From a virus (Duplodnaviria > Caudoviricetes): a stretch of DNA of 64,000 bases. The position numbers and the translations under genes were made by a program. Positions 18,203 through 47,289 of this stretch are shown in pieces. The stretch is taken from the IMG/VR virus record IMGVR_UViG_3300005805_000083, positions 2,921 through 66,920 of that record; one strand, given 5' to 3'. The number at the start of each line of letters is the position of its first letter. Positions within the stretch are counted from its first letter, which is position 1. The notes beneath the pieces were generated by a model. It worked only from the letters and a program-made list of their open reading frames with translations. It had not been told where the DNA came from and searched no databases.

Positions 18203-21200
18203 TTGATGCACGACATTCAATTTAAAGCCAACTCTGGACAGTTTAATATCGACCAAGCCCAGGGCATAGTCGAATGCTTCGTTGCGGGAATCGGCAACAA
18301 AGACTCCGTCGGGGACATCGTTGTTTCTGGTGCCTTTGCCAAGAGCCTTATGCGCCGCAAGCCAAGAGTCGTTTGGGGCCACAATTGGAACGACCCAATC
18401 GGCAAGGTCATCGAAATCTACGAAGTCCCACCCAACGACCCAAGACTTCCACAAAAAATGAAGATGGCTGGAATCGGTGGGCTTTACGCAAAGGTGCAGT
18501 TCAATCTCAATTCCGAGAAGGGCCGCGAGGCATTTGCAAACGTCGCATTTTTTGGCGAAGAGCAAGAATGGTCAATCGGCTACAAGACGCTTGACGCAAT
18601 CTACGACAACTCCAAGCAGGCAAACATTCTTCGTGAAGTCGAACTGTACGAGTTGAGCCCTGTTCTCCACGGCGCAAATCAATTGACTGGAACCATTTCG
18701 GTAAAAAGCGATGAAGAGAAAATGCACATGCACATGGGAATGGGCATGCCCTCTGGGATGATTGCAGTCGCCGAAAAGCCAAAGGGTCCAGTTGACCCAT
18801 TCGAGCAAGGAATTGCACAGCCAGCAGATAGCGACAGAATGGCTGCCCTTGAAAGAGAACTAAGTTCTCGAACCGACGGACCAATCAAGGTCATGAAGGC
18901 AAACGAAAGTTCAGTAGTTTTTCTCAAGCCTGGCAAGGGAATGTTCAGGCTTGGTTACTATTTTGATGGCGAACAGTACATGTTCGGCAAACCAGAAAAA
19001 CTCGGCGTTCCAATGATGATTCAGCCAATGGTTGGTCAACCAAAGCCAGGTCCAAAGCCACAGCGAATTCCAAATTTCCCAAACGTGGAGCAAAAACCGT
19101 CGTCGCCCATTGTCCCCGTTAAGTATGGCAACGATGCGGCAAGCGGATTCTTTTCGCTCGATGACGAAAAATCGCTTTCTGAGCAAGTTGCCGCAACACT
19201 CGATGGAGTTTCCTTGGGGGGCAATCAGGCGGACTTTGTTGAACAACTTTCTGGCATAGTTGGCTCATTGCAGCAAATAATCAGCCAGCACCGCTCAGAG
19301 AAGAGTGAACTATTAATCCAGTGTCCGCCAGAAATGGCTTTTGAAACAAAGCAAGCACTTGACCCAGTGTTTGACTATCACAGAATTGAATCGTATGTCA
19401 CTGAAGATGGGATTGTTATTGCATCTCCGTTGACTGGTGACGCATACGAGGCGGTGGAAAACGCAACCAAATCACTGCTCGGTAGAATCGGCAGAGGCAT
19501 CGGTGGTGGGGGAAAAGTTAGGCGCGGCAGGACCGCGCTAAGCAGAATAGAAGGGGTCCTCGACCCAAGAAGTAGGCGAGACGTCGACGGTGACGGACTC
19601 ATTTTTGATGGCACTTGGATGGAGCAGCCAGACCCAACCAGATTTGTTCCGAGAGTGCAGAGGTCGCTTAGGTCTGGTGGTGGCCCGAACGATGACGACA
19701 ACGATGACGACAAAACACCCAGGAAACCCAAATTTGTACCAAAGAAGGTTTCTGACAAAATCGAAGCGCAAGTCGGGCGCTCAATGAACAAAAAGATAAT
19801 CAGAATGTTCGATGAGTTGATTAGCAGAGGACAAATACCAGAAGACAGCATAGTAAGACAAATAGCAGATGGCTTCAAAAACGCCAAGCGCGAAGGAAGT
19901 CAAACCAGACCAGACATAACACCAGAGCAACTCGAGGCTTTCAAGTCTGAATTTGAAAGGCTGAGACCGCTATTTGCTGAGGTCGGCGCCTTAAAAGAGG
20001 GAGAGAAGGGTGCAAGCCCATTCGATGTTCTTTCCACAATAGTCACAACTGGAAAATTCAGAAGAGTCAACAAGGGAACTGGAAGTGGGAAGGAAAGAGC
20101 AGCAACTGCTGGCATGGAGTCTGCTGCAACTGGCGTGCGTGATGGTGGCTTGGATGTCATAGTTGGAACGAAAATACCGTTGCCAAAACTAAAAAGGACG
20201 GAAGGCAAATTAGACGTAAGTGAATTTATTGAAACTGGTTTGCTTCCAAAAAATTGGGAAGAAATGACTGGTGATGAGCAGGTTCGCTGGATTTCGGAGA
20301 ACGAGGATACTGTTCTCAATGCTGCTGGCAAGCAGCGCCCATGGAGATGGACACAACGTGTTGCTCGGGTATTTGATAGGGCATACGAAAAATCTTTTGA
20401 CGAAGACGAAAGAAAGGAGCGACTGGAAAGAAGGGCACAAAGAGGCGATGTGACAAAACCATCAACGCCACAGGCACCAAAGCCACAGGTACCAAAGCCA
20501 CAGGAACCAAAGCCACAGGCACAAAAGCCACCCAAGCCAAAATCAGACAATAAATTCATGGAAGCCATTTCCGAAACACTGAATCCATTTGTTGAGAGAA
20601 ATAAACAAAAACTTTCACCTGGTGTGGTCGATGCATACAACGACATGGTTTCGCAACTTGATGAGACTTTTGGCGACGAAGACATGAGTCGAGCGGAAAA
20701 GATACAAAAAGCGCAAGAAATCATTGATAAGGCATTGCGTGACATGACCATAACCAGAGACACAAACGAAGGTGACCCAAGCAGTCAATATTTTGAAGAA
20801 ACTACAAAACTAAGAGAACTGAATAAGACCGATAACAATCTATTGAGTGCAGTTCAACTGATGCTTGCAAGACTTTCCGACGAACAAGATGTGGAAGACA
20901 GGGAAGACGACCTTGATGCAGAAAGAGACATGGAGGAGGGGTTGGCGAGAAGGGCAAGAAGAGCGCGCCGCTACAACGTGGAAGACGATGAGGATTTTGC
21001 TGACGGAGCAGAAATAGATTACGCAGAGTATGGGGTCCCAGACCAAGACATTGGGGATGAAGATGACCGCATGTCGCTTCGGTCGTCTGGGCGGCGCGTA
21101 TTGTCACCAAAACAGTTGAGTGTGGCCAGGAATTTCCAATCTGCCCACAGAAGAAGAAAGTCAAACGGAACGCTTCGCTCGTCTGGCAAATCGCCACGAA

Positions 21201-45708: not shown

Positions 45709-47289
45709 ATGAGTTCGGACGCTCCAAAGACCCTTGAGGAAATGGTTGCACGGTACGGGAGAGCACTTGCCGTCATAGATGACGAGACTGGCGAACTCAA
45801 GGTTATGGGGATGGCTGGCGCCCACAGTGTTGACGTCACTGGTAAGCCGAAGAAAGGTACCAAAAAGCCAATAAATGACGGTTTTGACCCAGATGCAGAC
45901 GAGAACAACGAGGACGAAGACGAAGAGCAGTATTCGGAAAAAGAACTAAAGGTCGTCAGATACCTCAACGAAATGGAAGATGACCAATTCCACCTTTTAT
46001 TCCCAGAACAAAAAGACGAGGAGTCCGCTGAAGAGTTGAAGTGGCTCTTTGACACTGGCTTTGCTTTTGCGCGCAGGGCGCTTACTGGCAGAAGAAAGAA
46101 AAAGAAGAAGAGAAGTTACAAAGAAGTCGTCGACGACACAGAAATAAAAGCAGCAAAGAAAAAACTCAAAGACCCGAAGGGCGGTTTGACTGCTGCTGGT
46201 CGCGCCCATTTTAAGAGAACCGAAGGCGCGAACCTCAAGCCTGGAGTAAAGGGCGCTGCAAACACACCAGAGAAAATGCGCCGCAAGGGCTCATTCCTTA
46301 CCCGATTCTTCACAAATCCATCAGGCCCGATGAAAGACGAAAAGGGTCGCCCAACAAGACTTGCCCTTTCCGCAGCGGCATGGGGTGAGCCAGTTCCACA
46401 GAACGCAGACGATGCAGCAGCGCTCGCAGCAAAAGGAAGGCGCATGTTGGAGAGGTATGAAAACTCCAAGAAAGGAAAGAAAGACGCTTGGGATGACGTT
46501 GATGAAAAGACACTTGGCCCAACAATCGGTGGGGGCGGTGGCTCCAGTGACGCGACAAGAGACCATGACGGCGACGGCGTAATCAACGATGGAACGCCCG
46601 ACGAAAAGCCAGCGCCAAAGAAGAATCCCAATAAGTTCCTCGAAAAAAGAACTCGCAAGCATGTTCGACGAAAGTTGCGCGAACAGGGAATCGAGCCAAC
46701 AAGAAGAGGTCAGTCAATACAGGAACACGATGACGGAAGCCTGCACATTTATGATGACCCACGCCCCAAAAAGGAGCGAGATGCGCGCAGGGCTGCTAGA
46801 GAATCTTTCAATCAGGATGAAGACAGAAAGCGCTTTGTCAGAAATCAACTCCGCAAGGCTGGCATGACGCCAACGGCGAAAGGTTCAGAAAGAAGCGACA
46901 AGGAGAGAGCGGCGCGCCGTGCCGCAAGGGCCGAATACGAAAGAAGAGTTGCTGCTGGTGAACCGAGAAAGCCAAAAGCAAGTTCAACCCCACCAAGAAA
47001 GTATCCAGATGGCTATGTTCCTGGCCGTCCAGCCGACAGGTATCCAGAACCAAAGAAGGACACTTCGTGGGAAGACAACGAGGACAGGCGCAACAGGGCC
47101 AAGAGGAAAGAATCTTCGAATGAGCGCGCGGAGAGACAGAGACAAGAGCGCATGCGCCCTGCTGACCGCTCAAGCCAAAGAGCGGAAGACTCACGAAATC
47201 GCGACAAGCGCCCGCGCAAACCAGTTGACAGACTTGGTGGAGCAAATGGCCAACCAAAGAAAAAGACTCCTGGAAGTTGGATTGTCTAA
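45709..47289 (+). CDS. Head-cluster protein with DUF6321-like domain, DHDGDG motif and very basic C-terminus
   Basis: KDPKGGLTAAGRAHF...NLKPG...RKGSFL.RF...GPMKDEKGRPTRLAL; RDHDGDGVINDGT; R/K-rich tail. Confidence 0.65.
   Translation: MSSDAPKTLEEMVARYGRALAVIDDETGELKVMGMAGAHSVDVTGKPKKGTKKPINDGFDPDADENNEDEDEEQYSEKELKVVRYLNEMEDDQFHLLFPEQKDEESAEELKWLFDTGFAFARRALTGRRKKKKKRSYKEVVDDTEIKAAKKKLKDPKGGLTAAGRAHFKRTEGANLKPGVKGAANTPEKMRRKGSFLTRFFTNPSGPMKDEKGRPTRLALSAAAWGEPVPQNADDAAALAAKGRRMLERYENSKKGKKDAWDDVDEKTLGPTIGGGGGSSDATRDHDGDGVINDGTPDEKPAPKKNPNKFLEKRTRKHVRRKLREQGIEPTRRGQSIQEHDDGSLHIYDDPRPKKERDARRAARESFNQDEDRKRFVRNQLRKAGMTPTAKGSERSDKERAARRAARAEYERRVAAGEPRKPKASSTPPRKYPDGYVPGRPADRYPEPKKDTSWEDNEDRRNRAKRKESSNERAERQRQERMRPADRSSQRAEDSRNRDKRPRKPVDRLGGANGQPKKKTPGSWIV

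Follow-up and report, generated by a model that had tools for sequence, protein, structure and literature searches.

Why do several otherwise unrelated head-module proteins of one phage carry nearly the same short peptide? The question is raised by a 64,000-nucleotide stretch of DNA (hereafter the window) from a virus of the Caudoviricetes (Duplodnaviria), positions 2,921 to 66,920 of IMG/VR record IMGVR_UViG_3300005805_000083, which represents most of a 66.9-kb uncultured IMG/VR viral contig estimated to be ∼45% complete. In this window, the head-maturation protease and three further head-module proteins share a cassette built around an acidic D-x-[DN]-x-[DN]-G loop. Phages deliver proteins besides DNA, and to our knowledge the addressing of varied cargo to the head has been worked out only for phages T4 and P1. 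Here, one recognizable peptide was found to mark the protease and every large cargo protein in a widespread group of uncultured phages, and polyvalent proteins in other phages have a shorter form of it at the head of their enzyme modules. This cassette is real, conserved and uncatalogued. The reading that we favor, with a probability of roughly 0.45, is that it is a docking (address) peptide for the capsid interior with built-in processing sites, similar to the capsid-targeting signals of T4 and P1.

Anatomy of the cassette and its flanking motifs

A six-frame translation of the window contained four occurrences of D-x-D-[GN]-D-G, all in frame within long open reading frames (ORFs) of the plus strand and none in the other five frames. 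These are the three long units and one short unit that a preliminary description of this DNA had listed, and the sequences that it had placed upstream of them (KSLLGRIG, KASLGRTIG, KGILGRAIG and KTLGPTIG) could all be found. The long units (∼31 residues, GVLDPRxRRDVDGDGxIFDGTxxExPDP) have 81–84% protein identity. They are located in the protease fusion (GVLDP at nucleotide 19553; loop at D460, nucleotide 19580), in the giant protein p2585 (GVLDP at 33419; loop at D273, 33446) and in the 887-residue protein p887 (GVLDP at 41553; loop at D262, 41580). The short form, RDHDGDGVINDGT, lies at nucleotides 46558–46597 in the DUF6321 protein p526. In an all-against-all BLASTP comparison of the head-module proteins, the protease fusion, p2585 and p887 aligned with one another only over 77–97 residues (E 1e-16 to 1e-18), and their description as unrelated proteins therefore holds. 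The three 93-nucleotide copies are 72–76% identical at the DNA level, and only 14 of the 25–26 identical residues in each pair use the same codon. Thus, the likeness is kept at the protein level, by selection on the peptide, and is not the result of a recent DNA copy.

Each long copy consists of a header, T-K-x-LGR-x-IG, a gap of 20–30 mostly basic residues and the core (in what follows, an arrow marks a candidate cut). In the protease fusion (residues 421–493; 19463..19681, plus strand), the header ATK423↓S424LLGRIG is followed by a Gly-rich loop, a basic helix, GVLDP and RRD-VDGDG-LIFDGTW-MEQPDP, and SLRSGG stands at residues 488–493. The copy in p2585 (residues 226–300; 33305..33529, plus strand) runs from TK227↓ASLGRTIG to GVLDPRKRRDVDGDGMIFDGTWREMPDPSRF, with the next LRS-type motif at residue 346, and that in p887 (residues 219–296; 41451..41684, plus strand) from TK220↓GILGRAIG to GVLDPRVRRDVDGDGFIFDGTSREMPDPTRA, with NLRSSG at residues 290–295. 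The short cassette of p526 (residues 267–303; 46507..46617, plus strand) begins with K267↓TLGPTIGGGGG, continues to RDHDGDGVINDGTPDEKPAP and has neither GVLDP nor an LRS motif. An alignment of 25 protease orthologues showed that the invariant columns of the cassette include K423, I429, G430, D454, P455, R458, R459, D460, G465, I467, F468, D469, T471 and E474.

The K-x-LG-x-x-IG header before each unit resembles EFK112↓S113L of the major capsid protein (nucleotides 43940–43954), a putative maturation site that was invariant in the alignment of 10 capsid protein orthologues. This site is located where the delta domain of ∼112 residues should be removed. In phage HK97, the capsid protein gp5 is cleaved after Lys103, and the new N-terminus starts with SLGS. 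Two further head-module proteins, p2135 and p690, also carry this type of header. In p2135, K162↓ALGRSIG precedes a different second half, VDADGKF-RCPPGVPAANQFTDEVGSNCFDF (23545..23739, plus strand), and in p690 an EFK-RIG header is followed by RCPEGYQYGGRFTDNQFSTCG (30780..31055, plus strand). This second cassette type (RCP-x-G ... F-T-D ... S-x-C) has two conserved Cys residues and is kept in ∼30 orthologues from related contigs.

Downstream of the cassette, a second kind of motif was observed. [S/T]-L-R-S-S-G occurs 25 times between positions 19667 and 42713 of the window, is confined to the protease fusion, p2135, p2585 and p887 and is written with mixed Ser and Arg codons. The counterparts in relatives (GLASST, RGARS and GLRS) are found only in the same proteins, even where the capsid proteins are 91–96% identical, and these motifs look like lineage-specific junction motifs. 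Among 59 distinct long-form cassettes, 36 (61%) have G-L-x-S or x-LRS within 45 residues after DGT (mostly 9–24), vs 9.8% of background windows. With the header before it and the L-R-S motif after it, the cassette looks excisable, being bracketed by two candidate processing sites. Neither the headers of p2135 and p690 nor the LRSSG-type motif soon after the cassette had been part of the preliminary description.

Distribution and the wider family

To what extent is the cassette present outside the window? A scan of IMG/VR with a back-translated pattern detected 65 loci on ∼45 contigs, several of which contain two or three copies. These loci always belong to orthologues of the window carriers or to further large head-module proteins, and in the orthologues across ∼45 viral contigs the cassette is found at the same positions. 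Orthologues of the DUF6321 (PF19846) protein with the short cassette were also identified. Additional cargo types with the cassette in this clade include a 1268-residue family, DUF3626 proteins and sigma/zeta proteins. In one relative (L065:2643-4367), the cassette lies before the first ATG of the open frame, which overlaps the upstream ORF by ∼75 nucleotides; this may reflect a start codon other than ATG, a frameshift or an error in the assembly.

A profile search of 1.84 billion representative proteins yielded 78 matches at E ⩽1e-3, and those examined were phage proteins. About one-third of the matches came from the clade of the window, and the remainder formed a wider family with the logo core [P/I]-[R/K]-D-G-D-G-D-G-x-[I/V]-[Y/F]-D-G-T-P-x-E-R-P-[A/V] (in short, RDGDGDGx[IV][YF]DGTPxERPA). 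Its carriers include portal fusions with GNAT or InPase/ATLF, a four-ART-PolyVal protein, kinases, a NUDIX protein and an S78 protease fusion. The link to head modules that had been expected at the outset was borne out across these searches: the carriers examined are phage head-module proteins, namely fusions with the protease or the portal protein, polyvalent cargo and proteins of the DUF6321 type. Copy number and position were counted in 76 representatives whose core could be detected by a regular expression. More than half of them (45 of 76) have several copies of the tag, with a median spacing of 296 residues, which indicates that the tag is a module header. In polyvalent proteins of other phages, the shorter core heads two to five modules per protein. 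In 23 of the 76, the first tag is located within 50 residues of the N-terminus, and 22 of those 23 proteins start with Met.

The gene neighborhood of the wider family was taken from one IMG/VR contig (G001). On this contig, from a phage unrelated to that of the window, terminase is followed by a 2139-residue portal-InPase fusion with two tags, a 1089-residue ART protein with three tags, a 709-residue protein with a single tag and then a probable protease-scaffold protein and a capsid protein of the HK97 type. SLK↓AIGKIG stands before one of these tags, a two-part arrangement that is also seen in the window. The neighboring 709-residue and 1089-residue proteins (locus L077, 6532-8658 and 8642-11908, minus strand) both contain a stretch of ∼30 residues, KKKRGGPGQEIDGDGDGVIYDGTAQERPVVRR, with the SLKAIGKIG header, which suggests a recent duplication of a module together with its tag.

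In a search of 5.8 billion proteins, all matches were generically named metagenomic proteins, and carriers with DUF3626 were added to the set. These metagenomic proteins of 1149–1491 residues (P0151-P0181) combine DUF3626 (PF12294) with the long-form cassette and represent a further type of cargo, which the window lacks. With regard to isolated phages, a tblastn search with the cassette region against 50,697 phage records gave no match. On the basis of the capsid protein, the nearest isolated relatives are the actinobacterial myoviruses Brevibacterium phage Cantare and Gordonia phage Chidiebere (45–47% identity); in both, effector genes lie between the portal gene and the protease gene, and both lack the cassette and the header. 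In 185,579 species genomes, the single match was a chance IFDGT string without the loop. Sequence searches of Pfam (E up to 10), NCBIfam, PHROGs and PDB assigned no family to the cassette, the ESM Atlas gave no usable match and no paper on the cassette was found in a full-text search of the literature.

Possible roles of the cassette

How might such a peptide act? Structure prediction provides a first indication. In an AlphaFold2 model of the first 520 residues of the protease fusion (mean predicted local distance difference test score (pLDDT) 47.5), the header ends a helix of a small alpha/beta domain (residues 370–429) and is followed by a short basic helix (residues 441–449) and a low-confidence loop, with pLDDT 33–55 over the cassette. 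When the p887 cassette was modeled alone from 51 diverse sequences, the GVLDP...PDP core reached a pLDDT of 72–79; the model contained a tiny beta bridge but lacked a domain-like fold. Given this low-to-modest confidence and the lack of a domain-like fold, the cassette reads in the models as a linear motif rather than a folded domain, as would be expected of a binding peptide.

According to the reading that we favor, the basic part of the cassette and its aromatic [DN]G-x-I-F-D-G-T-W core would bind a component of the procapsid interior. Candidate partners, both acidic, are the delta domain at the N-terminus of the HK97-type capsid protein and the protein p446, and the charges are complementary (isoelectric point (pI) 11.3–11.6 for the cassette and 4.8 for the delta domain; net charge −74 for p446). 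Docking would co-load the protease fusion and the cargo polyproteins during shell assembly. The S78 prohead protease might then cut the K↓[S/A/G] header, which is of the same type as EFK↓SL in the capsid protein, and the downstream G/S/T-L-R-S would also be cut, either by the S78 protease or by another protease. Together, the two cuts would set the enzyme modules free and release the tag in the form of a basic peptide of ∼65–120 residues (pI ∼11.5). In agreement with an address, the cassette occurs only in phage head-module proteins, including the protease itself, and its N-terminal place in many relatives corresponds to the layout of the capsid-targeting signals of T4 and P1 DarB.

Several observations weigh against this reading. 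In all window proteins the tag is internal (residues 220–490) and not terminal. Portal-fused cargo is also tagged, although it is inside the capsid by construction and should need no address, and a polyprotein may have up to five tags although one would suffice for loading. With the portal fusions and the multiple copies, there is real scope for the tag to act in processing, retention or ejection. The proposed cuts face difficulties as well. F-A-K-S-L (residues 45–49, nucleotides 18335–18349) is invariant inside the protease domain, and with FAK47-SL lying within the protease fold, K↓S is not proven as a cut site. K[ASG] within 30 residues upstream of the wider-family tags is enriched but not universal (67% vs 30% in background). 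Finally, the LRSSG-type motif varies among phages whose capsid proteins are 91–96% identical. As a separate observation, FAKSL within the protease domain could alternatively be an autoprocessing site. The packaging tag on head proteins that had been put forward in the preliminary description is therefore partly supported: its restriction to head-module carriers, the untagged capsid protein and the N-terminal place in many relatives fit it, whereas portal-fused cargo should need no such tag and the two probable flanking processing sites had not been foreseen.

The same observations might be taken to mean that the tag is a processing element, that is, an exosite or an extended recognition element on the P' side, through which the prohead protease would be brought to the junctions between modules, with loading achieved by other means. 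We consider this unlikely, but not negligible. The tag stands just downstream of K[ASG]-type sites, lies at most module junctions in the wider family and is flanked by two candidate sites in the clade; tagged portal fusions would need release and not loading, and a tag on the protease fusion would permit processing in trans. However, the capsid protein, which is the main substrate of the protease, has no tag, and an address thus fits better than a protease-recognition element. Moreover, the Met start of 22 of the 23 proteins tagged near the N-terminus leaves little or nothing upstream to remove, and clade proteins with one tag each have 3–12 LRS-type junctions without a tag. Slightly more doubtful is a Ca2+- or Mg2+-dependent structural or tethering loop that acts after assembly, tying cargo fragments to the shell, to DNA or to each other in the ion-rich virion and letting go or unfolding in the low-calcium cytoplasm at ejection. 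One copy per released module would be sensible if every fragment needed its own tether, and the sequence of the D-x-[DN]-x-[DN]-G loop suggests that it might bind a metal ion. The earlier assignment of DxDxDG as a calcium-binding loop stands for positions 1, 3, 5, 6 and 8 of the EF-hand loop, which in the wider-family logo are D (100%), D (99%), D (100%), G (100%) and I/V (96%), and the natural variants in the clade are only D-to-N swaps at positions 3 and 5 (DANNNG and DVDNDG), an interchange that is also seen in EF-hand loops. It fails at position 12, where Thr is found (89–100%), and at position 9, which is Phe, Tyr or Asn. In the PROSITE EF-hand pattern, position 12 is occupied by an acidic bidentate ligand (Glu/Asp) and position 9 by a small polar residue, and the Thr and the aromatic residue show that this is not a canonical EF-hand. 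In addition, the cassette lacks flanking helix-loop-helix elements, has no Pfam match to EF-hand, dockerin or TSP3 even at E 10 and shows no formed site in the AlphaFold2 models. The best PDB sequence matches were calmodulin-type loops, but they were not significant (E 1.9). An isolated DxDxDG-type loop usually binds Ca2+ weakly.

A bolder combination of these ideas, to which we give only slender odds, would make the D-x-[DN]-x-[DN]-G/IFDGTW tag a metal-switched cargo tether of HK97-fold capsids, which docks modules either on an acidic core protein or on the inner side of the shell, is locked by Ca2+ in the virion and is released in the low-calcium cytoplasm, with the K-x-LG-x-x-IG header as an encapsulin-like loading peptide. 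The cargo-loading peptide of encapsulins, which we take to be GSLxIGSL-like and to bind the luminal face of an HK97-fold shell, is only loosely similar to K-S-L-L-G-R-I-G. A calcium-dependent self-cleaving unit at Asp-Pro (GVLD↓P), as in RTX proteins such as FrpC, seems very improbable. The [DN]-P pair does lie six residues before the loop, is invariant in the protease orthologues (D454, P455) and is nearly so across the clade, but it is missing from the short form of p526 and from most of the wider family, and this lack of conservation beyond the clade is what makes self-cleavage unlikely. The RTX self-processing module is a folded domain of ∼170 residues. No such folded calcium module accompanies Asp-Pro in the cassette, where only ∼35 residues separate [DN]-P from the next junction, and there was no PDB sequence match. 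It could also be argued that a motif so short and so rich in Gly and Asp recurs by chance, through low complexity or as a DNA-level repeat without protein function. We give this practically no credence, as the motif is conserved in 59 distinct versions and the three long copies of the window keep residues while their codons differ. Chance likeness is ruled out by the in-frame occurrence in long ORFs of one strand together with the BLASTP E values, and a DNA repeat or recombination site by the mixed codons and the level of nucleotide identity.

If the cassette is indeed an address that is cut after loading, it would provide a sequence rule for finding injected effectors in metagenomes, explain how new enzyme modules are plugged into the cargo set and supply a compact tag with which foreign proteins could be loaded into capsids of the HK97 type. 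The likeness of the loop to an EF-hand prompts the further question of whether metal ions govern cargo retention, and a metal-switched tether, if true, would allow portable and programmable loading and release of protein cargo in phage heads.

Comparison with known systems helps to place the proposed address. According to Duda, Oh and Hendrix in 2013, the C-terminal tail of HK97 gp4 reportedly docks the protease to the capsid delta domain and can bring foreign proteins into the prohead. Like the cassette, this tail is said to be a short docking peptide on an S78-family protease; it differs in being C-terminal, in belonging to a small protease and in not being known on cargo proteins. The capsid-targeting sequence of the T4 internal proteins IPI-III and Alt comprises ∼10 residues, is strictly N-terminal and is removed by the gp21 prohead protease (PMC9026906). 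In both cases, a short peptide is common to otherwise unrelated proteins of the head; the T4 peptide lies next to a prohead-protease site, plugs varied cargo into the head and is removed after loading, and the cassette with its candidate sites would work in a similar way. Targeting of this kind has also been put forward for the T4 protease (PMC9026906), and here the protease fusion carries the cassette. In contrast, the T4 sequence has no acidic Gly-Asp loop and no sequence similarity to the cassette, which is longer (∼30–70 residues), is internal in the clade, has two flanking candidate sites, and goes with an HK97/S78-type protease and a delta-domain capsid protein instead of a T4-type core. 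In P1, the capsid-targeting signal of DarB lies in its first 30 residues (PMC9024508). It belongs to a giant polyvalent anti-defense protein, in a phage whose capsid protein has an N-terminal scaffold domain (PMC9024508), but it is N-terminal, is not a recognizable cassette common to several proteins and has no known D-x-D-x-D-G loop. Polyvalent proteins in general are multi-domain effectors whose genes lie next to those of the head and for which packaging and injection have been predicted (Iyer, Burroughs, Anand, de Souza and Aravind, 2017; PMC5512222), and among their domains ART-PolyVal, InPase, zeta kinase, NUDIX, GNAT and portal fusions were encountered here. For their processing, zincin metallopeptidases have been proposed (PMC5512222). 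A search of the text of that study found neither ‘calcium’ nor ‘DGD’, and the tag and the prohead-protease-type junctions are not described there.

The head module around the cassette

Which genes surround the carriers? The head module is coded on the plus strand of the window, and its start is marked by the portal protein (16082..18106; PF04860, E 1.9e-51). The protease fusion (18203..21571, 1122 residues; PF04586, phrog_80) has an S78 domain (residues 22–174) and two small domains ahead of the cassette, which is followed by a long charged tail containing three LRS motifs. Its score against PF04586 (41.3 bits, cut-off 21) places it in the S78 prohead-protease family, and phrog_80 matched with E 8.8e-29. 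The score against TIGR01543, the stricter equivalog, was 49.7 and below the cut-off of 59, as expected for a divergent fusion.

The gene for p446 (21698..23038, plus strand, 446 residues) always directly follows the protease gene in the clade. The protein has an N-terminal Cys-rich stretch with CxxC pairs and a long Asp/Glu/Met tract, and its C-terminal 320 residues are 75–94% identical across the clade. Except for a weak match to PepSY, no family match was found for p446. It is a candidate core or scaffold protein, and we infer that it may be a partner of the basic cassette.

The remaining genes of the module, all on the plus strand, encode the giant proteins p2135 (2135 residues) and p2585 (32630-40387, 2585 residues), smaller proteins of 153, 220, 690 (p690) and 170 residues, p887 (40797-43460), the HK97-fold major capsid protein (43613..44932, 439 residues; PF05065, E 4.5e-46) and p526 (45709-47289, 526 residues). 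With DUF3721, a sigma-70 region 4 helix-turn-helix and a zeta-toxin kinase, p887 unites at least two unrelated effector or DNA-binding domains in a head/packaging block, between the portal and capsid genes, as is characteristic of polyvalent proteins. The capsid protein contains neither the cassette nor LRSSG. The last 227 residues of p526 (46606-47289) have a net charge of +31 and repeated RAARRAAR-like strings, and in this the region is reminiscent of internal head proteins that condense DNA. Three transfer RNA genes lie downstream of the head module, at 50628-50701 (Arg-TCT), 53043-53116 (Ile-TAT) and 59060-59136 (Pro-TGG).

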